A stretch of DNA of 64,000 nt from a virus. Positions within the stretch are counted from its first letter, which is position 1; each line of letters begins with the position of its first letter. A program made the position numbers and the translations under genes. Shown here piece after piece: positions 1,956 through 24,314 of the stretch. The stretch spans positions 2,688-66,687 of the IMG/VR virus record IMGVR_UViG_3300031933_000117, one strand, 5' to 3'. Under the pieces are notes generated by a model, which did not search any database, had not been told where the DNA came from, and saw only the letters and a program-made list of their open reading frames with translations.

Positions 1956-2165
1956 TTAGTTCTTATAAAGGTCTTCTAGTCTTTCTTTGGTGAGGTCAAC
2001 ATATAAGAGTTCATCACCTTCTTTTGGTGCTTCTGGATGTTGAGGTTTTCTTGGAGTTCTCATTTCCTCATTGATGGATTGGATGTTTCCCCACATCATC
2101 GCAAAGGCACCTCCTGCGATGACTGCGAAGAATGTGAAGTATAGGAGAGGGAGTAGGGGGTTCAT
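1956..2165 (-). CDS. Small membrane protein, DUF2973-like
   Basis: N-terminal TM helix followed by HPEAP motif, as in cyanobacterial/cyanophage DUF2973-type proteins. Confidence 0.55.
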   Translation of the reverse strand: MNPLLPLLYFTFFAVIAGGAFAMMWGNIQSINEEMRTPRKPQHPEAPKEGDELLYVDLTKERLEDLYKN

Positions 2166-2542
2166 GGGGTTTTATGTGTTTGTAGGTATTTAATCATAGT
2201 CTCAAGGATTTGTATATTATCACCAACAAGACCAAGTGCAGTATTGCAGTTGTTACAAAGAACACCACGAACTTTATTTGAAGAATGGCAGTGGTCTATA
2301 CACTTCTTATCCAAAACCTTATCACATATCTGGCAGTTCTCATTTTTCATCAAGTCATTATATTGGTCTTCTGTAAATTTAAACTTTCTACGCATAAACT
2401 CGTGTGGTTTATAATATTGTTTTCTATTTTTTGTTGCACATTTTTTACATCTTGGTTGCAATCCAACATTACCAGAATTAAAAGTTCTTTTATGAAATGC
2501 ACTATCTGGCAATTCAAGTTTACAATCGTTGCACGTTTTCAT
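2162..2542 (-). CDS. Free-standing Endonuclease VII-family homing endonuclease (F-CphI-like) downstream of psbA
   Basis: CQIC...CIDHCH...VRGVLCNNCNTALG EndoVII motif; N-terminal CxxC pairs; own late promoter TATAAATA (2568-2575); position directly 3' of psbA. Confidence 0.8.
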   Translation of the reverse strand: MKTCNDCKLELPDSAFHKRTFNSGNVGLQPRCKKCATKNRKQYYKPHEFMRRKFKFTEDQYNDLMKNENCQICDKVLDKKCIDHCHSSNKVRGVLCNNCNTALGLVGDNIQILETMIKYLQTHKTP

Positions 2543-2576
2543 ATTTGTAATGCGTATTTTCTATACTTATTTATAC

Positions 2577-2602
2577 AAAAAAAAGGAACTCCGAAGAGTT
2601 CC
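2577..2602 (-). terminator. Intrinsic terminator of psbA
   Basis: GGAACUC-UUCG-GAGUUCC hairpin followed by U8 on minus strand. Confidence 0.85.
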
Positions 2603-2612
2603 CCTTATTATA

Positions 2613-5131
2613 TCAACCGATAGAAGGAGCAGTTAGAGCAACCGAAGTTGTTTCTGCTGCTGCCAGATCTAAAGGAAAGTTCGCTTAACCCGTAAATTTA
2701 CCATCCTTACGGAGCAGACTATATCATCAACCTATTTCATTAGGTTGTCGGACGCTAATGGTGTATTACATAGGGCGCTCCCTAAACCACCTAGTCGTTG
2801 AACCTTCCTCAAAAGTTCGTTTGAGGCTTGGCTGCTGATTGCCCTTATATTTTGGAGGGGTTCCAGCAATTCATCCGATTTACATCTATCAATTACTTGA
2901 TAGAGCCACCACTTTCTAATGGGCGTTACGTTCATGCCGTTTTTGTTATCGTAAGAACTCTTTATTTCTTACTTCTTACTGTCGCCAGTAAGACCAGACT
3001 ATCTCTTCATCCGTTCTGGATGCTGGGCATTCGTGGGTAGATTATTGTTGGAACTCACTACCTAGTCGTTAGACCTGCCGAAGAACCTATGTCCTCTTCG
3101 GATTGGTACGGGATTGTCTACTTGAGAGTTTCCCCGTTTAACCCAGTTTCGTCAAGGAATATTCCTATTCCAGGGTGACTACATTTCAGAAATCACTTCC
3201 ATACCAAGTCCAGCACGATTTAAAATGTCAGCCCAAGTAGGAATTACTCGGTTTTGACTATCAATAAGAGACTGGTTAAAATTAAAACCGTTGCACTAGA
3301 TCCATAAGTTTACCATACTTGTGGAGTGGACTATATCTTCATCCCAGTAGGATGTCGGACGCTTATTCCTGTTATTAAGGGAACTATATCCCTCAGGTAG
3401 TCTCTGAACCTTTCTTGAGTGTACTCAAGACTTGGATGCTGATTGCCCTTTTATTTTGGAGGGTTTCCAGCAATTCATCCGATGTTTGCCGTTAAATTGC
3501 TTTAACGGAACCCCAATTGAGGTTAAATGCCATCGTGGATACACCAAGAGCGGTGAACCAGATGCCCACAACGGGCCAGGCAGCCAGGAAGAAGTGTAAC
3601 GAACGGGAGTTATTAAAGGAAGCATATTGGAAAATAAGGCGACCAAAATACCCGTGAGCAGCAACGATGTTGTATGTCTCTTCTTCTTGTCCGAACTTAT
3701 ATCCATAATTCTGTGACTCGGTTTCAGTGGTCTCACGAACTAGTGAAGAAGTCACTAGCGAACCGTGCATAGCACTGAAGAGTGAACCACCGAAGACACC
3801 AGCAACTCCAAGCATATGGAATGGGTGCATAAGGATATTATGTTCTGCCTGGAAGACTAGCATGTAATTAAACGTACCAGAAATACCAAGGGGCATAGCG
3901 TCAGAGAAAGAACCTTGACCGAAAGGATACACAAGGAATACAGCACTCGCAGCAGCAACAGGTGCAGAGTAAGCAACCATAATCCAGGGACGCATACCTA
4001 AACGATAGGAGAGTTCCCATTCACGACCCATGTAGCAATAGATGCCGATAAGGAAGTGAAATACAACAAGTTGAAATGGACCTCCATTATACAACCATTC
4101 GTCAAGACTCGCTGCTTCCCAGATAGGATAGAAGTGAAGTCCGATAGCATTTGAACTTGGAACAACAGCACCAGAGATGATGTTGTTTCCGTACATAAGA
4201 GAACCAGCAACTGGTTCACGAATCCCGTCGCTACATCTAACAAACAACCATATCTTTTGACTTAGGTTGCTTCTGTTGACGAATTTGATTTGCTCGTTTT
4301 GCGTTTTCTACTCTTCCACCGTTTTCTACCCACTCTTTCCAAGTTTGTAGGTAAGAAATAGATTCGGTTATTCTCTCTGCTCTTCTTACTCCCATATAAG
4401 GAAGTATTTTTTGTAGAATGAATAATACCTTTTCTTTTTCTCCGATGTGAAGTGTATAAACTTGTTTTCCTGTTACGGTCTTTCTTGATGGTGAAAAATA
4501 AGATTTATCTAAAAGTTTACTCAACCTTTGGATAATATCTTCATCCACCATAGAAATTTTGATAAAAGGTGCTGGTGGAGTATTAGAAACTTCATAACGG
4601 TCTTTGGAACGATTATCTATTCCAAAGTATCCTTCACCTTCTAATAATCCAGCAATCCAAGCAATATCAGTCTCGGTTATGTTTAACATTTTGTTTTTGC
4701 TTCTACTGTACTATTTATACAGCATTAGCAAGAAAAAGTCAACAGTAGATGTGTGGACTATATCTTCACCCTTCATTTTTATTGAAGGGGCTGGGCACTT
4801 AAACCTGTTATTAAGGGAACTATATCCCTCAGGTAGTCTCTGAACCTTTCTTGAGTGTACTCAAGACTTGGCTGCTGATTGCCTTTCGGTTTCCAGCAAT
4901 TCACCCAGTTTCGTCAATACTCTTACGAGTAAGGGACACCGATTAGTTAATGTCTACGGGAGGCGCTCCAACAAACGCAATAATGAAGCAAGTAGTTGCA
5001 GCGAGCAACGTTGGAATCATAAGAACGCCGAACCAACCAACATAAAGGCGGTTGTTCGTGGAAGTAACCCAGGAACAGAAATCGTTCCAGAGATTATTAG
5101 TATTAGAACGTGTAGCAATTGTAGCAGTCAT
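2613..5131 (-). CDS. psbA: Photosystem II D1 protein, 5 exons: 5131-4950, 4230-3520, 3293-3192, 2937-2919, 2681-2613
   Basis: Exon lengths 182+711+102+19+69=1083 nt = 360 aa + stop. Junctions restore PPVD(AT|C)DGIREP, AFN(CT|C)NGFNFNQ, GMEV(AT|G)HERNAH and H|NFPLDLA. Confidence 0.97.
2682..2918 (-). mobile_element. Group I intron 4 of psbA (237 nt, no ORF)
   Basis: 5' exon ends in U (CCAU pairs IGS GUGG with U-G); P10 GAAAGU pairs exon ACUUUC; core AAUUGCUGGAA, AAUCAGCAG, GGUUCAACGACUA, AUAUAGUCU; terminal G. Confidence 0.93.
2938..3191 (-). mobile_element. Group I intron 3 of psbA (254 nt, no ORF)
   Basis: Exon end GUGAU pairs IGS GUCAC (U-G at splice site); core AACGGGGAA/AAUCCCGU, GGUCUAACGACUA, AAGAGAUAGUCU; terminal G. 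Confidence 0.93.
3294..3519 (-). mobile_element. Group I intron 2 of psbA (226 nt, no ORF)
   Basis: Exon end AACCU pairs IGS GGGUU; P10 UUG/CAA; core AAUUGCUGGAAA, AAUCAGCAU, GGUUCAGAGACUA, AAGAUAUAGUCC; terminal G. Confidence 0.95.
4231..4949 (-). mobile_element. Group I intron 1 of psbA (719 nt) carrying a LAGLIDADG ORF near its 3' end
   Basis: Exon end GACAU pairs IGS GUGUC; core AAUUGCUGGAAA, AAUCAGCAG, GGUUCAGAGACUA, AAGAUAUAGUCC; terminal G at 4231. Confidence 0.95.
4237..4689 (-). CDS. Intron-encoded single-motif LAGLIDADG homing endonuclease
   Basis: [23 protein letters not shown]-type helix; inside intron 1 downstream of the S element; late promoter TATAAATA at 4712-4719. Confidence 0.85.
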
Positions 5132-5154
5132 TTGTTAAAAAGGGGGTAAGTATG

Positions 5155-5217
5155 AGTTCGGGGGACGAACTTATTAGTAACTATATTCCACGACACCCTC
5201 AGTCGTGGATATGAGGG
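5155..5217 (-). ncRNA. Structured psbA 5' leader (candidate PhotoRC-II-like cis element)
   Basis: Interleaved complementary pairs CCCUCA/UGAGGG and UCCACGAC/GUCGUGGA plus hairpin AGUUCG/CGAACU; family assignment not verified. Confidence 0.5.
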
Positions 5218-5297
5218 ATGCTTTACTTCTCTTGATCCCGGTTTGAGAAGACACGGTTCTCAGAATTGTCACATTCCTTAACCCCGTGTATGTATAT

Positions 5298-5326
5298 ATC
5301 ATACCATTGTTAGGAAATCCTGTCAA
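5298..5326 (-). promoter_or_regulatory. Sigma70-type (early) promoter of psbA
   Basis: TTGACA-17 nt-TATGAT on minus strand. Confidence 0.8.
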
Positions 5327-5405
5327 TAGGTCCAATTACCTAGGTGGCACATTATAAATAAAGGGTTTTTAATAAATATAAGTGTAATAAAAACATCTCA
5401 TCTCC

Positions 5406-5519
5406 GTGCCAAAATCACCGAATAAAGGTAAGAAAGGTTCTACTGGAGGAAAGCGTCCCAAACAAAATCAGGGAAATGCGGCCGCTAAAAAAGCAAAGAA
5501 TGGCGGCAAGAAGAAGTGA
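5406..5519 (+). CDS. 37-aa Lys/Gly-rich basic microprotein (MPKSPNKGKKG...AKNGGKKK)
   Basis: Read by hand; GTG start; late promoter TATAAATA at 5353-5360; stop abuts next ORF. Confidence 0.55.
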   Translation: MPKSPNKGKKGSTGGKRPKQNQGNAAAKKAKNGGKKK

Positions 5520-5525
5520 GGAATT

Positions 5526-5723
5526 ATGCCACGCGAATTCAACACTCCTCATAGAAAAGATTGGAACGCACCGATACATAACATTCTCAAAGCAATAGAT
5601 AATCATACTCAAGAATACTTTAAAAGTGGCGATACTTGGCATCTACAAAAAGCACAAATACTCCGTGAGTATGTTGCGGAATTAAAAACTTGGATACATA
5701 AAACAGAAAAAGAAAACTTATGA
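5526..5723 (+). CDS. Hypothetical cyanophage protein
   Basis: ORF in a compact plus-strand operon. Confidence 0.6.
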   Translation: MPREFNTPHRKDWNAPIHNILKAIDNHTQEYFKSGDTWHLQKAQILREYVAELKTWIHKTEKENL

Positions 5724-5860
5724 CTGACCCAGTATGGAGCGTAAATATTTTAATCGCACTAGGATTACTTGGTGCTGCCTGGATGATTTACTATATACTC
5801 ACACAAGACGATAGAGAAAATGTACCAATACAAGATCAAAAAGATCAACAGGATCATTGA
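5720..5860 (+). CDS. 46-aa single-TM protein
   Basis: Read by hand: MTDPVWSVNILIALGLLGAAWMIYYILTQDD...; ATGA overlap with upstream stop. Confidence 0.5.
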   Translation: MTDPVWSVNILIALGLLGAAWMIYYILTQDDRENVPIQDQKDQQDH

Positions 5861-6158
5861 TGGTGACACGATAGATGTCGCAATTGATGTAGGTTTTCAT
5901 ATTACAATCAATCAAAGAGTTCGTCTCAAAGGTATTGATGCTGCCGAAACAAGAACCAAAGACCTTACAGAAAAAACAGAAGGTCTCCTGGCAAAAGAGT
6001 GGTTGGAGAAAGAACTTTCCAAACCCGGTGAATGGATTATTGAAACCACCAAGGATGATAAGTATGGAAGAATACTTGGAACCTTATACTTAGTTGGAGA
6101 ACCAGTCACCGTGAATGAGAGAATGATAAATGATGGAATCGCAAGACCTTATATGTAA
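5820..6158 (+). CDS. Staphylococcal nuclease (thermonuclease)-like protein
   Basis: IIDGDTID, VRLKGIDAAE, DKYGRILG motifs. Confidence 0.85.
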   Translation: MYQYKIKKINRIIDGDTIDVAIDVGFHITINQRVRLKGIDAAETRTKDLTEKTEGLLAKEWLEKELSKPGEWIIETTKDDKYGRILGTLYLVGEPVTVNERMINDGIARPYM

Positions 6159-6162
6159 TTAC

Positions 6163-6831
6163 TTAGATAACACTAAGACACCTATTATAATACTTTTTAC
6201 GATCTTCTAATCCGCGATAACCACCATTCACTTTTCTGGTTACATCTTCTACGGATGGATTACGATCACATAAGGCATTCATATTATTATTATGCCACCA
6301 AAAACCGGCGGAAGTAGCAGGATACTTGGAAGAAACATAATCTACTCCATTCATAATCTTTGGATCATTCATATACTTGGAGAATGATGCGTAGTTTGCT
6401 CTGCCCGTAAGTTGAATAAATCCGGCGCCTTTGTACTTTTTCCCATCACCCGGTTGAGTATTTCCTATATCTCTTCTTCCCTCATAAGCATCACCAGAAG
6501 CAAGTTCTTTCATCCATTTTCCGGCACCAGATTCGTGTGAGATTTGAGAGATAAAATGTCTCATTCGGGACTGGGTATTAATCTTAAAAAGATTGAGACA
6601 ACTATTCAAGTCATTAATTACGGCGTCCGTGATTGAGTTTTCGTTTGATCCCCAAATAGAAGCAAGTTGTTTCTTGGTGATGAGTAACTTAACTTCTGGT
6701 TGTTTGCGATATAATTTCTCAAACTCTTCTAAAACATATGGAAGAGTATTTTCTTGTAGATACTCAAATGCTTCTATTTGTTCTTTGGTTCCCTTAAAAT
6801 GTTTGGCAGCGTCTGTGAATTTGATAGACAT
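6163..6831 (-). CDS. Glycoside hydrolase family 19 endolysin-like protein
   Basis: [32 protein letters not shown] motifs. Confidence 0.88.
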
Positions 6832-6882
6832 AATTAACTCTCCTGATAAACAACTTTGAATTTTCTTTTGGTGGACTCTTAC

Positions 6883-7593
6883 TTAGGGTAGAAAGATGCG
6901 ACCCCATCCGGTTCCAACTCCATCAGCAGTCCATCTTTTTTCTAGTTCCATTCTTCTATAAACCACTTGTTTGCCTTCAGTAACAGGACCAGTATACCCC
7001 CGCACCAGACTTCCGTATGGGTCGTGGAAAATATAATCTCCTTTATCAGTCTTACCAATACAGCAAATCATATGACCCGAGTTTCTAGTGGGCATATGAG
7101 TTGGACCACGATGAAGAATACCTAAAACAAGCGGTCTCCCGGCGGCAAGTTCACGATCCAAATCAGAAAAATTAAGATTCTTATGGAATACAGAATTTAG
7201 TCCATATCCTTGTAATACCCTTGTTTGTACTGAGTGATCTGTGGATTTACCAATAGCAAGAACTTTTTTTAAATATGCGTCATCACCTTTTGGTCCAGAA
7301 GGAAGAGAACCTGGTTTCAGGAACTTAAGAACCATCGCACAAGAAGAAGAATTACAAGTGCTATCGGGAAGTGTGTAATTATCTGTTTGTGGATAAAACG
7401 GAACATTCAACAAAATACCAGATGGTGGTGTAGGAGCACTTGGATTTTTATAAAGACGCACCCAATTCGCATTATCTTGAAGAAGTTCAGGTGCCTTCTG
7501 TTCTAATACTCTTACAAGGTCATCAACCGCAGCACGATGTCTTGGAAGTGTATGATCGTAATATCTAAAAAAGTTTTGTAGATCTATTTTCAT
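6883..7593 (-). CDS. C39-like cysteine peptidase (putative cell-wall hydrolase)
   Basis: QTDN...CNSSSCAM catalytic Cys region, GHMICCIG, HDPYG. Confidence 0.75.
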   Translation of the reverse strand: MKIDLQNFFRYYDHTLPRHRAAVDDLVRVLEQKAPELLQDNANWVRLYKNPSAPTPPSGILLNVPFYPQTDNYTLPDSTCNSSSCAMVLKFLKPGSLPSGPKGDDAYLKKVLAIGKSTDHSVQTRVLQGYGLNSVFHKNLNFSDLDRELAAGRPLVLGILHRGPTHMPTRNSGHMICCIGKTDKGDYIFHDPYGSLVRGYTGPVTEGKQVVYRRMELEKRWTADGVGTGWGRIFLP

Positions 7594-7731
7594 TTCAATA
7601 AAAAAACTCCTCCCTATATTTAGGAGGAGTACATTGATGCTTTAATTATAATCGCAGATACGCATAATACGATGAAAATATCCGCAATTAACATTTTAGT
7701 AAGTTTGTAAGGTTGTTAAGAGTATAATATA

Positions 7732-7851
7732 CTAAAAAACTCCTGGAAGTATTTGCCTGGCGGTAAGATAAGTACCAACGGCAATTACAAATCCCAACAT
7801 CGCAAGTCTTCCGTTAAGAATTTCTGCCTCGGGGGTAAATCCAAATTTCAT
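7732..7851 (-). CDS. hli: High-light inducible protein (39 aa)
   Basis: Read by hand: MKFGFTPEAEILNGRLAMLGFVIAVGTYLTARQILPGVF; AExxNGRxAMxGF chlorophyll-binding motif. Confidence 0.9.
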   Translation of the reverse strand: MKFGFTPEAEILNGRLAMLGFVIAVGTYLTARQILPGVF

Positions 7852-7933
7852 AATTTTTTTATTAAGAACTATAACAATATTATATATGAGAAGACGGGTC
7901 TTGTCAAGGGTCTTAAGTCAGCATCCTCTAACT

Positions 7934-8728
7934 TTATGACGGGTTTGTAATTCTTCCAAGATATGGATCATAATTCATCAAGTCATCGATTGTCATATCA
8001 GAACCCTGGGTTTCCCAGAACTGAAAAAGACCATCACGACTTTGACGATGAAAAACATCAATGTGCTCTGGATGTATAGTGGACCCCAACTCTATCTTAT
8101 AAAGAAATAAAGGAATTGAGAAAGTATTTCCAGAATTATAAATCAAATCATCCGCCACTGCTCTGGGTTTGACACCCTGATCGAGTTTATACTTATCACC
8201 ACGACAATGAAGATCAATTAGTTTTTTTGCGTGATGGCGAGTAATGATATATGCCGCTGTTGAAAAATCATTCACAAATCTCTTATGAAGTTTTACATGT
8301 AAATCACCAGTACAAATAATCGCAAGTTGAATTACATCATAGTCATAAGGAACTTTAGCAACAAAATCACTCCAAGTAAAGTTCCAGAATTTTGCTGTCT
8401 GTAAATCTACATCATCCTCCATAATGACCGCATATGGACTTTCGGAGGTTTCCACCCAGTGTTTGAGTGCCCTAAGATGAGAAGTGGTACATCCAATCTC
8501 ACCGGTAGTCATATTATCCGGATACTTTCCCTTGATAATTTCACTCAGGTCATCTTCTCTTCCGTCATAGGCAGAAATACGAGTATAGTTTTCAATCTCC
8601 CAGTACTTAAACTGCTGCTCCATATATTCACTTCTTTCTGGTTGCCCATCAAGATTTAGGTAATATATCGGTCCGATATTTTTAAATTTGTATGCTGCCT
8701 TATTTTTATCCATCAGATTGTAGTCCAC
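7934..8728 (-). CDS. Glycosyltransferase family 25
   Basis: YYLNLD...ERSEYM, GEIGCTTSH, IMEDDV. Confidence 0.8.
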   Translation of the reverse strand: MDYNLMDKNKAAYKFKNIGPIYYLNLDGQPERSEYMEQQFKYWEIENYTRISAYDGREDDLSEIIKGKYPDNMTTGEIGCTTSHLRALKHWVETSESPYAVIMEDDVDLQTAKFWNFTWSDFVAKVPYDYDVIQLAIICTGDLHVKLHKRFVNDFSTAAYIITRHHAKKLIDLHCRGDKYKLDQGVKPRAVADDLIYNSGNTFSIPLFLYKIELGSTIHPEHIDVFHRQSRDGLFQFWETQGSDMTIDDLMNYDPYLGRITNPS

Positions 8729-9519
8729 CTTTCCGGTATTAAGTCTTTTGTATTCTTATCAGAATTATTTACACCGAACCACCTCACAGGAGCCACAACA
8801 TTATCAGAACCAGATAACCATGCACCCCACCAGGAGTATGATGAATTGGCAATAATGTGTTGCTTACAAAGACTCATTAAACACAAATCAACATATTGAT
8901 CTCCAGATTCAGAAATCATAAAACGATCACCAGAAAATAGTTCTTGTTCTTTACACCATTCGGGATCATCAGAGAATACAAAAACTGAAGAAGTATCATA
9001 AAATTTGTTAAGTGCTTGCTCGTAGTAATCCAGACCCAGTATCGTATGATTTGGATTTGTAAGGTAATCAGTTCTACGAACATGAAGAGAAATTACCTCT
9101 CCAATTGAACCAACCATTTCCTTACAAGGTTCTAGGATCTCATCCTTGAATGAAAAATCTGCACGAATTTCATCTTCAATATGTTTGAAATATTTTTCAG
9201 ATTGAAAATATCCTGCAAGACTTATTTCATCGGGACACATATTAAAAAGAATTTCGTCAAAGTGAAAATGCTTTTCTTCTGCTACCGGAGCATATCCACG
9301 GTCAAGGAGTTTGATATTGCGAGGACTTACACCACTCATCTTAAATGGATAGAACAATTCAATCTTCATATCAAATCCATAAGGATCTTTAATTACTTGA
9401 TTGTGATTAGGAATACAATAGTCACATCCACGATTCCTTGCAATTCCTTTCAGGGAAGCATACTGAAACATTTGATTTCCAAGTCTTCCAAGTTGCCCCA
9501 AATAATTAAATGCTAACAT
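8713..9519 (-). CDS. Alpha-1,2-fucosyltransferase-like (GT11)
   Basis: GRLGNQMFQYA, GYFQSEKYF, HVRRTDY, IIANSSYSWWGAWL. Confidence 0.88.
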   Translation of the reverse strand: MLAFNYLGQLGRLGNQMFQYASLKGIARNRGCDYCIPNHNQVIKDPYGFDMKIELFYPFKMSGVSPRNIKLLDRGYAPVAEEKHFHFDEILFNMCPDEISLAGYFQSEKYFKHIEDEIRADFSFKDEILEPCKEMVGSIGEVISLHVRRTDYLTNPNHTILGLDYYEQALNKFYDTSSVFVFSDDPEWCKEQELFSGDRFMISESGDQYVDLCLMSLCKQHIIANSSYSWWGAWLSGSDNVVAPVRWFGVNNSDKNTKDLIPERWTTI

Positions 9520-10330
9520 TTAATTGATTCCTCCGATGTTTTACATAATTTTCTTCTTCGTAATATTTAACAAGAGTTTCTTTATCCCATGTTCTAATTT
9601 CATTCCACATATTCATATTATATTGCCACTTTGGATTATGATAATGAGAATTAAATGTTCTCTCATGATTCAAATGATAGCACATATCGTTGACTCTACC
9701 AACTTTACATCCCATAACTTGAATCCTATAAAGAAATTCACAATCTTCAGGACCCCAAGCCATAAAGTTCTCATTCCACATATAAGAATCAATTTCAGAT
9801 TGTCTCCGAATCATTTGCCCCAGCCCCATAACGGACGGGCAAATATTACATCCGGGTTGAAGAACGTTCAAATCAAATTTAGATTTTAAAAATTTATCAA
9901 ACATTTCAATAGGAAAATCTACTAACCACTGATAAACACCAACTCCATAGCAATAGACAGCATCAAATCCATATTGGGAGATCATATTATATGCAGTATG
10001 ATAACTACTTATTGGTAGAAGATGATCCACATCATAATTATAAACAATTTCAGTTTTTGATTCCAGTAAGAGATCATTTAGTATACGAGTCTTATGAAAG
10101 AAACCATCAGGATCATATTCAAAAATATGAGTTAAATTTTCTGGTTTTTTTCCAAACAACTGTGTAATATAAGGAAGTGCCTTTTCTTTAAAGATTGATT
10201 GAATATCGTGTTCTTTAACTATAATTTTACATTCCGGAAAATGATAAAGTAAATAACTAATTGAAGTTATGACATTTTTGAGTCTATCTTCAGACTCAAT
10301 TCTACAAGGCATTAAAAATGTTAAGTTCAT
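9506..10330 (-). CDS. GT-A glycosyltransferase (GT2/GT7-like)
   Basis: YDVD DxD-like motif, NENFMAWGPED, HLNH. Confidence 0.7.
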   Translation of the reverse strand: MNLTFLMPCRIESEDRLKNVITSISYLLYHFPECKIIVKEHDIQSIFKEKALPYITQLFGKKPENLTHIFEYDPDGFFHKTRILNDLLLESKTEIVYNYDVDHLLPISSYHTAYNMISQYGFDAVYCYGVGVYQWLVDFPIEMFDKFLKSKFDLNVLQPGCNICPSVMGLGQMIRRQSEIDSYMWNENFMAWGPEDCEFLYRIQVMGCKVGRVNDMCYHLNHERTFNSHYHNPKWQYNMNMWNEIRTWDKETLVKYYEEENYVKHRRNQLNVSI

Positions 10331-11175
10331 GATTCAACTTTAATCCAATTTTTTGGTAATAAATCGTCCATAATATAATAGTTATATCCAGGACCAAACC
10401 AGGGGTCGGGTGCAATAATTGGTTGAGTTGGATTTTCGATTAACCAGGCACCCCACCAACTTAAAGTGCTATTTGCAATAATACCACCAGTGCAGAGAGT
10501 CATCATACAGAGATCAAAATAAGGAATTAATGCATTTTGTTTTCCATCATTTGTATCAGACTTTTGGGGATATTTTTCTTGGTATTCAGACAACATAAAT
10601 CTATCAGAAGAGAATAATTCTTGATCTTTACACCATTCAATATCATCAGAAAATACTAATACTGGAGATGATTCATCAAAATGTTTTAGTGCATTTTCAT
10701 AATATTGAAGAGAGCACAGAGGATGATGCACCTGACTACCAATATAATCACTACGCCTTACGTGTAAGAATATTGGATTTTTTAAATCATCAAATATTTC
10801 TTTACATGGAGTTAAAATCTCATCTTTAAATTCAAAATCATTTCTGATTAAATCCTCGATATTTTTAAAATACTTTTCAGTAGTAAAATAATCATGAAGA
10901 TTTATATTGTCAGGACAATTATCAAAAAATTCTTGACTAAAATGAAAACATCCGGATTGAATACTCTGACCCTGAACATATCCAAAATTTTCTTCTTTTA
11001 CGGAAGACATTTTAAAACAATCAAATAATCCATAATTGGAATCACCATATCCCTCAAAAGGTGGAATTACCCAGTCATATCCTTTATGCGCAGCAATACC
11101 AAGAAGTGCTGCATATTGGAACATTTGATTACCAAGTCTCCCATTTGAACCTAAACGATTATAACCTATTGTCAT
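10327..11175 (-). CDS. Second GT11 alpha-1,2-fucosyltransferase-like protein
   Basis: GRLGNQMFQYA, HVRRSDY, IIANSTLSWWGAWL. Confidence 0.88.
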   Translation of the reverse strand: MTIGYNRLGSNGRLGNQMFQYAALLGIAAHKGYDWVIPPFEGYGDSNYGLFDCFKMSSVKEENFGYVQGQSIQSGCFHFSQEFFDNCPDNINLHDYFTTEKYFKNIEDLIRNDFEFKDEILTPCKEIFDDLKNPIFLHVRRSDYIGSQVHHPLCSLQYYENALKHFDESSPVLVFSDDIEWCKDQELFSSDRFMLSEYQEKYPQKSDTNDGKQNALIPYFDLCMMTLCTGGIIANSTLSWWGAWLIENPTQPIIAPDPWFGPGYNYYIMDDLLPKNWIKVES

Positions 11176-11795
11176 TATTTTTTTCTCACATATAGGGCAT
11201 CACCCCAAATACCACCAGACCAATCAGTCTCTACCCTATCCATTTCATATTCAGAAAGAAACTCATCAAGTTCTTCGATATAAGCATTATTCTCATAGAC
11301 TTCATCTCGGTTTACTTCACAGTAAACATAGTCAATATGTTTCAAAGTTTCAGATCCACCCTTCAAAACTTCTAATTCATACCCCTGAACATCCATATTG
11401 ATAAAATTAAATCCTTGAGTTTCTTCAGAAAAACTATCAAGTCTTTTCATTTCAACTTCTTCGGTTCCATCAAATTTTACCGTTGGATGATTAGTTAGAT
11501 GTAATTTTGGTTTAAGAATAGAACTACTCATCTGTTCATTATCACTCAAATACATGGTTACCATTTTTTCTTCATTTCCCAATGCAACTTGATGTCCAGA
11601 AATGTTGGCATTAGAGTTTCCAACGTTTTGTTCCAGAATTTTAAAATTGAGATTTAATGGTTCAAAAAGAATAATGTCTTGCACACCACAACTAATATAA
11701 TCTTCAATCTCTTGTCCCCTATGGGCACCAACATGAATGATACCTTTAACATCCATGCTATACTTGCAAACCATGGTTCTAAAATTTAACAGCAT
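11175..11795 (-). CDS. FkbM-family methyltransferase
   Basis: IIHVGAHRG, FEP, INMDVQGYELEVLKG. Confidence 0.88.
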   Translation of the reverse strand: MLLNFRTMVCKYSMDVKGIIHVGAHRGQEIEDYISCGVQDIILFEPLNLNFKILEQNVGNSNANISGHQVALGNEEKMVTMYLSDNEQMSSSILKPKLHLTNHPTVKFDGTEEVEMKRLDSFSEETQGFNFINMDVQGYELEVLKGGSETLKHIDYVYCEVNRDEVYENNAYIEELDEFLSEYEMDRVETDWSGGIWGDALYVRKK

Positions 11796-23772: not shown

Positions 23773-23843
23773 AGCGGATACACGGATTTGAACCGAGGAT
23801 AAAAGTTTGGAAAACTCTTGTGTTACCACTACACCATATCCGC
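23773..23843 (-). tRNA. tRNA-Gly(UCC)
   Basis: GCGGAUA/UAUCCGC acceptor; UUUCCAA loop; GGUUCAAAUCC. Confidence 0.9.
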
Positions 23844-23881
23844 ATTTGAGAGAATTATAAGACATAATGAGTATTATGTCA

Positions 23882-23955
23882 AGCCCCCAGCGAGGATTTG
23901 CACCCGCGACTATCGCTTACAAGGCGATTATTTTAACTACTACAACTATGGGGGC
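23882..23955 (-). tRNA. tRNA-Thr(UGU), atypical D and T loops
   Basis: GCCCCCA/UGGGGGC acceptor; AUCGC-CUUGUAA-GCGAU anticodon arm; T-loop reads UGCAAAU; D-loop lacks GG. Confidence 0.7.
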
Positions 23956-24035
23956 AAATAAAAGCAGGGTCTCTTGGATATACCGCAGTTCTTACTTTTA
24001 AATTTGAAAGACCCGAACATTTCCAGATCTTTCAA

Positions 24036-24108
24036 CTCCCCCTCCTGGGATCGAACCAGGGACATTCTGATTAACAGTCAGACGCAACTACCGCTGTGCT
24101 AAGGAGGA
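24036..24108 (-). tRNA. tRNA-Asn(GUU)
   Basis: UCUGA-CUGUUAA-UCAGA; GGUUCGAUCC. Confidence 0.93.
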
Positions 24109-24130
24109 ATGATGGAGTAAAAACTCCAAG

Positions 24131-24204
24131 CGTCTTGGGAGGGACTCGAACCCCCGACCAACTCATTAGAAGTGAGTGGCTCTATCCATCTGAGCTACCA
24201 AGAC
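24131..24204 (-). tRNA. tRNA-Arg(UCU)
   Basis: GUCUUGG/CCAAGAC; ACUCA-CUUCUAA-UGAGU; GGUUCGAGUCC. Confidence 0.93.
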
Positions 24205-24242
24205 ATAAGACAATCATAACAGACGATGCTAGGATTGTCAAA

Positions 24243-24314
24243 TGGGTCGTAGAGGAGTCGAACCTCTCTCTACCGGTTAAAAGCCGGGTGCAAAAACCGA
24301 TCTGCCAACGACCC
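24243..24314 (-). tRNA. tRNA-Lys(UUU)
   Basis: GGGUCGU/ACGACCC; CUUUUAA loop; GGUUCGACUCC. Confidence 0.88.

Follow-up and report, generated by a model that had tools for sequence, protein, structure and literature searches.

Four group I introns, each independent, site-specific, self-splicing and selfish, have very probably invaded the psbA gene of an uncultured T4-like cyanomyovirus, carried on IMG/VR virus record IMGVR_UViG_3300031933_000117. The stretch analysed, hereafter the window, comprised 64,000 nucleotides (nt) from positions 2,688 to 66,687 of that record, and all coordinates below are window positions unless another contig or genome is named. The gene lay on the minus strand (5131-2613) and consisted of five exons of 182, 711, 102, 19 and 69 nt, parted by four introns of 719, 226, 254 and 237 nt, respectively. 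When the introns were removed, the spliced gene was 1083 nt long, had no internal stops and encoded a D1 protein of 360 amino acids followed by a stop. The original prediction, made from the letters of the window, had given exactly 360 codons of D1; the 360 residues were indeed intact on splicing, and with the stop the count came to 361 codons.

Exon structure and ribozymes of the window psbA

In a six-frame view of 2000-6000, D1 protein fragments were found on the minus strand, interrupted by non-coding stretches. Junctions were placed by requiring a 5' exon ending in U, an intron ending in G and conserved D1 sequence across the joint, and a single solution was obtained; in the resulting junction map, U stood at the end of all four 5' exons and G at the end of all four introns. 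The same five exons, the 19-nt one included, were recovered with an independent spliced protein-to-DNA alignment using our own aligner. Exon 1 (4950..5131; this and all features of the gene on the minus strand) comprised the first 60 codons and 2 nt of codon 61, and ended in U. It was followed by intron 1 (4231..4949), a group I intron of 719 nt with its ribozyme core in the 5' 213 nt (to 4737). Exon 2 (3520..4230, 711 nt) encoded part of D1 residues 61-298, exon 3 (3192..3293) was 102 nt long, exon 4 (2919..2937) was a micro-exon of 19 nt, and exon 5 (2613..2681, 69 nt) supplied 22 codons and the TGA stop. Introns 2 (3294..3519, 226 nt), 3 (2938..3191, 254 nt) and 4 (2682..2918, 237 nt) were group I introns without an open reading frame (ORF). 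Three insertion points fell inside codons (61, 298 and 332, each in phase 2), and the fourth, in phase 0, followed codon 338. Two other placements were tried and rejected. If exon 1 ended at 4949 (ATT), intron 1 would end in C, and 4950/4231 was preferred; placing intron 3 at 3191/2937 fitted the U...G rule, but Ile would replace the conserved Met332 and U-A, not the U.G wobble, would stand at the splice site.

Retention of intron 1, 2 or 3 would shift the frame, their lengths not being multiples of three. The 237 nt of intron 4 are divisible by three, but the intron opens with TAG. A D1 mRNA therefore depends on the removal of every intron, since any one left in place leads to a frameshift or a stop.

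A covariance-model search with Rfam RF00028 (gathering score 50 bits) returned four minus-strand matches, each spanning model positions 1-253. Intron 1 matched at 4959-4737 (75.1 bits, E 3e-17), intron 2 at 3529-3302 (83.0 bits, E 1e-19), intron 3 at 3231-2975 (56.5 bits, E 1e-11) and intron 4 at 2937-2690 (93.4 bits, E 1e-22). No further group I match was found by the Rfam search in the whole 70.7-kb contig. Together with the junction map, the search bore out the four group I introns originally predicted, with a U-G wobble in P1 and a terminal G. An extra helix between P7 and P3' was seen in the Rfam alignments of all four introns, which suggests that they belong to subgroup IA.

The pairings that define the splice sites were located by a script that looked for a P1 of 6 bp with the splice-site U opposite G and for a P10 in which 3-6 bp are formed with the first nucleotides of the following exon. 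With a hyphen for the splice site, P1 of intron 1 paired GACAU-U with GGUGUC and its P10 paired CGA with UCG. For intron 2 the pairings were AACCU-C with GGGGUU and CAA with UUG, for intron 3 GUGAU-U with AGUCAC and GCAU with AUGU, and for intron 4 CCAU-UA with UGGUGG and ACUUUC with GAAAGU. Homologues at the same sites carried matching changes on both strands of these helices. At site 338, exon and guide co-varied in P1 (CCAU/GUGG, GCAU/GUGC in S-CBWM1 and ACAU/GUGU), and P10 was either ACUUUC/GAAAGU or AUUUUC/GAAAAU. P10 at site 332 was GCAU/AUGU or GCAC/GUGU, and at site 61 it was CGA/UCG or AGA/UCU, with the compensatory variants in contig L200. Within the family of intron 3 (RNAalifold, 24 members), double changes that kept the pair were found in 26 of 60 pairs, the co-varying pairs lying in P2, P3, P6, the extra helix between P7 and P3' and the P9 hairpins. 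Each ribozyme would thus recognise its own 5' exon by a P1 with a U.G wobble, and the 3' exon would be aligned through P10. We infer that the four introns are self-splicing in this phage.

Introns 3 and 4 lay 19 nt apart around the HERNAH segment, as had been predicted, with both the junction map and the spliced alignment in agreement. The micro-exon between them, G CAT GAA CGT AAC GCC CAT, completes Met332 and encodes His-Glu-Arg-Asn-Ala-His338, among them ligands of the Mn cluster. Its first four nucleotides (GCAU) paired with AUGU of intron 3 as P10, and nucleotides 16-19 (CCAU) formed P1 with GUGG, the guide of intron 4. Each of these pairings co-varied in homologues, in support of an exon that serves two ribozymes. 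Intron 3 would thereby use the 5' end of exon 4, and intron 4 the 3' end. Since the two segments do not overlap, neither order of splicing of introns 3 and 4 is excluded, and under the proposed mechanism no order would be imposed. The four splicing events had been described as sequential, an order that nothing in the sequence requires. The pair of introns at 332 and 338 with the same micro-exon was also present in six other IMG/VR contigs.

Origin and mobility of the introns

Introns 1, 2 and 4 belonged to one broad family, along with the introns of cyanophages S-PM2, S-SRM01 and S-CBWM1. Intron 3 belonged to another family and represented a lineage distinct from the other three. No relatives of intron 3 were found in cultured cyanophage genomes, the only cultured-phage hits being short stretches in introns of Bacillus and Streptococcus phages; its relatives were found solely in IMG/VR. 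Core identity to same-site introns in other contigs was 93-95% for intron 1, up to 98.7% for intron 2 and up to 99.4% for intron 4, and introns 1 and 2 of this gene were ~86% identical to each other. Because identity between same-site introns (93-99%) was much higher than that between neighbours (~86%), the introns represent separately acquired site-specific lineages, not recent copies made within the gene. Introns 1 and 2 shared a nearly identical core of ~85 nt, and a recent intragenic duplication was considered on that ground and rejected on the same comparison.

Intron 2 had the appearance of a mosaic: the central ~85 nt were almost exactly those of intron 1, and the P3-P5 and P9 regions were shared with intron 4. 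The same pattern was present in same-site introns elsewhere (98.7% identical), showing that the mosaic predates this genome.

The family of intron 3 was found at two sites 16 nt apart, one within codon 332 (guide AGUCAC) and the other between codons 337 and 338 (guide GGUGUU, which pairs with AACGCU). Apart from the guide, the ribozyme was conserved between both sites. The lineage was commonest between codons 337 and 338, where it was 258 nt long (L133:4407-4670 and ~45 other loci), and in four contigs tandem copies of it stood at 332 and 337 around a 16-nt exon. Judged from these alignments, the family appears to be a clear case of retargeting through an altered guide sequence.

Intron 1 contained, after P9, an ORF of 150 amino acids (4237..4689, minus strand) for a LAGLIDADG homing endonuclease with the single motif IAGLLEGEG. 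Its match to Pfam LAGLIDADG_3 was marginal (23.0 bits vs a cut-off of 22.5); matches to the PDB entry for I-AniI (E 7e-4) and to PHROG 5046 (E 1e-17) were also obtained. The ORFs of T4 introns have late promoters of their own. The sequence TATAAATA, the T4 late-promoter consensus, was found at 4719-4712 (minus strand), within a small inverted repeat (CTGTA...TACAG) and 22 nt 5' of the LAGLIDADG start codon, which suggests that the intron 1 ORF may have its own late promoter as well.

The endonuclease gene was intact in the window and in contig L190 and was reduced to remnants in contigs L198 and L202. One other contig held a 784-nt version of the codon 61 intron. Introns of 254-322 nt at the same site had no ORF and kept remnants of the ORF 3' end; those of 269 and 322 nt retained its last ~50 nt, and one of them part of the leader. 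Because these 3' remnants persist, the introns without an ORF are deletion derivatives, and the various states of the gene fit the usual invasion, decay and loss cycle of homing endonuclease genes.

A second endonuclease gene stood outside the introns. Downstream of the psbA terminator, starting 71 nt past the psbA stop, lay a free-standing gene of the Endonuclease VII (EndoVII) family encoding 126 amino acids (2162..2542, minus strand; Pfam PF02945, E 5.5e-17; PHROG 2633, E 2e-33). The protein was a homologue of F-CphI of S-PM2 (33% identity, E 4e-19). F-CphI cleaves psbA copies that lack the intron, cutting them at the site of insertion, which is termed collaborative homing (PMC6083498). The S-PM2 insertion site, between Arg335 and Asn336, falls in the middle of exon 4 of the window gene; that this site lies inside the micro-exon, with an EndoVII gene beside psbA, may be a clue to collaborative homing, and is suggestive only. 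A link between introns 3 and 4 and the EndoVII gene was also sought through co-occurrence, and the attempt was given up on a weak result. In a biased sample of IMG/VR loci, the gene was found 3' of psbA at 4/5 loci with an intron at 335, at 10/44 loci with an intron at 337 and at 1/6 loci with the 332+338 pair.

As selfish mobile elements, the introns would be maintained in a highly conserved gene. Intron 1 would be mobile by means of its own LAGLIDADG endonuclease, and introns 2-4, having no ORF, would probably spread by co-conversion or with help supplied in trans, the F-CphI-like neighbour being a possible helper.

A PhotoRC-II RNA motif occupied the psbA 5' leader (5173..5262, minus strand; Rfam RF01717, 44.1 bits vs a 39-bit gathering score) and was also found 5' of psbA in S-SRM01 and at many IMG/VR loci. 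Further upstream, a candidate sigma-70-like promoter was located by pattern match only (5298..5326, minus strand; TTGACA-17-TATGAT with TG, 11/12 consensus matches). An intrinsic terminator followed the gene (2581..2606, minus strand), with an 11-pair stem and then a T run, and the same hairpin was present 3' of psbA in S-SRM01. Elsewhere in the window, five tRNA genes were clustered at 23773-24314 (minus strand; Rfam RF00005, 47-65 bits).

Multi-intron psbA genes in other phages

Phage introns are generally thought sparse, and the first group I intron known from a phage psbA is that of S-PM2. The psbA gene of that phage has one intron, between Arg335 and Asn336, in line with the single intron cited in the original prediction, together with the free-standing F-CphI. 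The introns of the window flanked the S-PM2 site (within codon 332 and after codon 338), with two more further upstream; the core of intron 2 was 87% identical to the core of the S-PM2 intron, and intron 4 was 71.5% identical to that intron by blastn. The psbA of S-CBWM1 has two annotated group I introns and no micro-exon, whereas the window gene has four introns. The second S-CBWM1 intron stood at the exact site of intron 4 (after His338) and was 73.5% identical to it over 93% of its length. Its first intron carries an endonuclease gene and lies at about codon 218, whereas the endonuclease intron of the window lies at codon 61.

The nearest cultured relative, and the closest genome by DNA, was S-SRM01 (NC_070963). 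Its psbA (2821-5223, plus strand) was complete and contained three introns, and an EndoVII gene lay downstream, as in the window. The three sites were all unlike those of the window: one intron, with an HNH gene, followed codon 93, another followed codon 251, and the third shared the S-PM2 position between Arg335 and Asn336 (placed by the aligner at 334). In the S-SRM01 record, D1 is given as two 'partial' genes and the last two exons carry no annotation; its authors recognised one likely intron and annotated 'partial psbA' genes (PMC8557907).

Outside phages, the chloroplast psbA of Chlamydomonas reinhardtii also contains four group I introns, some with endonuclease genes (PMC5931967, PMC2761285). 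The algal case resembles that of the window in gene, intron number and intron class, and differs in being an organelle gene with large introns. A similar arrangement, in a different gene, is that of orf142 of Staphylococcus phage Twort: Landthaler and Shub reportedly described in 1999 three group I introns and exon skipping in it, and the introns are reportedly small and ORF-less, with short internal exons in one short phage gene. We know of no 19-nt exon in Twort orf142.

The frequency of such genes was assessed in two IMG/VR samples. The first came from two exact-pattern scans for intron-core sequences, covered ~200 loci and was intron-biased. Among its complete psbA genes, 26 had one intron, 11 had two and 11 had three; at the upper end, four introns were found in 8 genes (this window included), five in one gene and nine in one gene. 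The second sample was seeded with D1 protein and consisted of 75 complete genes of close relatives, an uninterrupted central exon being required by construction. In these, 65/75 genes had no intron, 8/75 had one and 2/75 had two. Four introns are therefore in the tail of the distribution, uncommon yet recurrent. The insertion positions reported by the aligner totalled 22, a few of them one codon apart and possibly the same site. Genes that were otherwise near-identical differed in which sites were occupied, and no conserved combination of introns was seen.

The gene with nine introns was found on contig L138 (IMGVR_UViG_3300042987_001812, 6653-11257, plus strand), where ten exons encoded D1 residues 1-360. 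Its introns were placed at 61, 107, 167, 186, 191, 216, 298, 332 and 338, and 8/9 were confirmed by Rfam. It had two micro-exons, one of 15 nt (residues 187-191) and one of 18-19 nt (residues 333-338). A survey of viral psbA for the four sites of the window had been proposed with the original prediction; all four were occupied in L138, and there were seven other genes with four introns, so the case is a recurrent one. Phage psbA with more than two introns was not described in the literature searched in full text, where the only cases found were those of S-PM2, S-CBWM1 and S-SRM01. A 2025 survey put the number of known phage introns at slightly more than 100 (PMC11878797). The view that four introns are exceptional thus held against the searched literature (at most two) but not against public sequence, with three in S-SRM01 and four, five and nine in IMG/VR.

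The sequencing runs in which 98% of the words sampled from window 2500-5300 occurred were labelled as gas-well and rock (subsurface) metagenomes; the other runs with such words were from aquatic, marine and lake samples. A gas-well or rock source is odd for a cyanophage, and injected surface water is probably the reason.

RNA contigs, alternative explanations and implications

Logan contigs from four metatranscriptomes were aligned to 2500-5300. An exact 226-nt skip at intron 2 was found in two runs; it was reported as 3290 to 3517, with a 3-nt ambiguity that covers 3293/3520. In one freshwater run, exon 5 and the 3' untranslated region were joined at 2681 to the 19-nt micro-exon, which had one synonymous difference, and then to 3192. 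The predicted junctions in both kinds of contig are the natural exon joins, and splicing by this phage is not implied by them. A sediment run, X16, contained a 748-nt contig running from 4895 to 4231 and then from 4949 to 4867, in which the last G of intron 1 was joined to its first U. The wrap-around overlap was 29 nt, giving a circle of exactly 719 nt from a relative 97% identical to the window. This contig fits a full-length RNA circle of intron 1 and fixes both ends of the intron independently, and it is the sole RNA item not explicable by intron-less alleles. Contigs across unspliced intron-exon boundaries were also present in the metatranscriptomes.

Some contigs from the RNA libraries joined intron copies across the common core (2841/4890, 3344/4867 and 2882/3228). 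These intron-to-intron joins may be assembly cross-overs, may come from relatives with hybrid introns or may be recombinants without the intervening exons.

Several points weigh against four functional, selfish introns in this gene. The RNA contigs come from relatives of this phage, and those that look spliced, being from relatives 92-99% identical, could stem from intron-less alleles. The intron 1 circle was a single contig with a depth of 3.5, from an RNA library possibly containing DNA. Intron 3 cleared the Rfam threshold of 50 bits by only 6.5 (56.5), and the P10 of introns 1 and 2 was just 3 bp. A role of the EndoVII gene in moving introns 3 and 4 is possible but not backed by co-occurrence, the gene lying downstream of psbA in only one of the six other contigs with the 332+338 pair. 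Finally, the introns may confer a regulatory benefit.

That last point can be taken further, to the kinetic or light-linked control put forward with the original prediction: the four introns would form a regulatory device, D1 supply being gated by four ribozyme reactions answering to light, redox state or guanosine triphosphate and so tuned in the course of infection. We regard this as unlikely. Light intensity alters the splicing of the single psbA intron of S-PM2, and light-dependent splicing is reported for the four psbA introns of Chlamydomonas (both PMC5931967); these are precedents only. Each intron of the window would also block translation when retained. However, the 65 intron-free genes among the 75 of close relatives show that the introns are dispensable, their content differs from site to site between near-identical genes with no conserved combination seen, and the endonuclease genes are decaying. 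Selfish homing fits the site-specific presence and absence of introns and the decaying endonuclease genes better than regulatory control does. The two readings are not mutually exclusive, and we infer both the mechanism of mobility and the lack of a regulatory role.

It is very improbable that the gene is a pseudogene in which at least one degenerate intron no longer splices and D1 is not made. The low score of intron 3 and the short P10 of introns 1 and 2 would favour such a reading, but the exons were intact and the exon 2 protein was 97-99% identical to that of IMG/VR psbA genes, intron-free ones included. Moreover, the ribozyme helices co-varied, same-site introns were 93-99% conserved and the predicted junctions were present in RNA contigs. 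An assembly artefact, with several phage populations fused into a chimera through repeated intron cores, is less probable still: the ~85-nt near-identical core of introns 1 and 2 could promote it, and RNA and DNA contigs did cross-join intron copies (2841 to 4890 and 3344 to 4867), but the exons were colinear and complete, two runs, each a possible source of this DNA, contained 98% of the words sampled from window 2500-5300 (45-61% in runs of other studies), contig L138 had introns at all four sites and six other contigs had the 332+338 pair with the micro-exon.

With four site-specific, selfish introns as the preferred reading, the window psbA is new to the literature in having the most introns for a phage psbA, a micro-exon serving twin ribozymes, and an intron-encoded LAGLIDADG endonuclease together with an F-CphI-like neighbour. 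Public sequence data, by comparison, contain many such cases. A broader and undescribed phenomenon, for which we judge the chances to be even, would be that no viral gene seen so far is as dense in introns as psbA in a set of uncultured T4-like cyanophages, with 22 reported positions, up to nine introns per 1.08-kb gene, recurrent micro-exons of 15-19 nt and one lineage at neighbouring sites by a re-written guide.

The practical consequence is that annotation wrongly breaks multi-intron psbA genes into fragments, S-SRM01 being an example, and that amplicon or read-mapping surveys of viral psbA will miss or mis-size them. Exon 4, which encodes Mn-cluster ligands and is common to two ribozymes, is a compact system in which to examine exon skipping and the order of splicing, and the presence of the same lineage at sites 16 nt apart is direct evidence on how introns gain new targets. 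Four ribozymes in one auxiliary metabolic gene of 1.08 kb, and up to nine in a relative, show that a host-derived photosynthesis gene can turn into a homing hot spot on a par with fungal mitochondrial cox1. If the broader phenomenon is real, psbA of these phages would be a natural system for intron retargeting, for the splicing of micro-exons by twin ribozymes and possibly for a light-tuned supply of D1.

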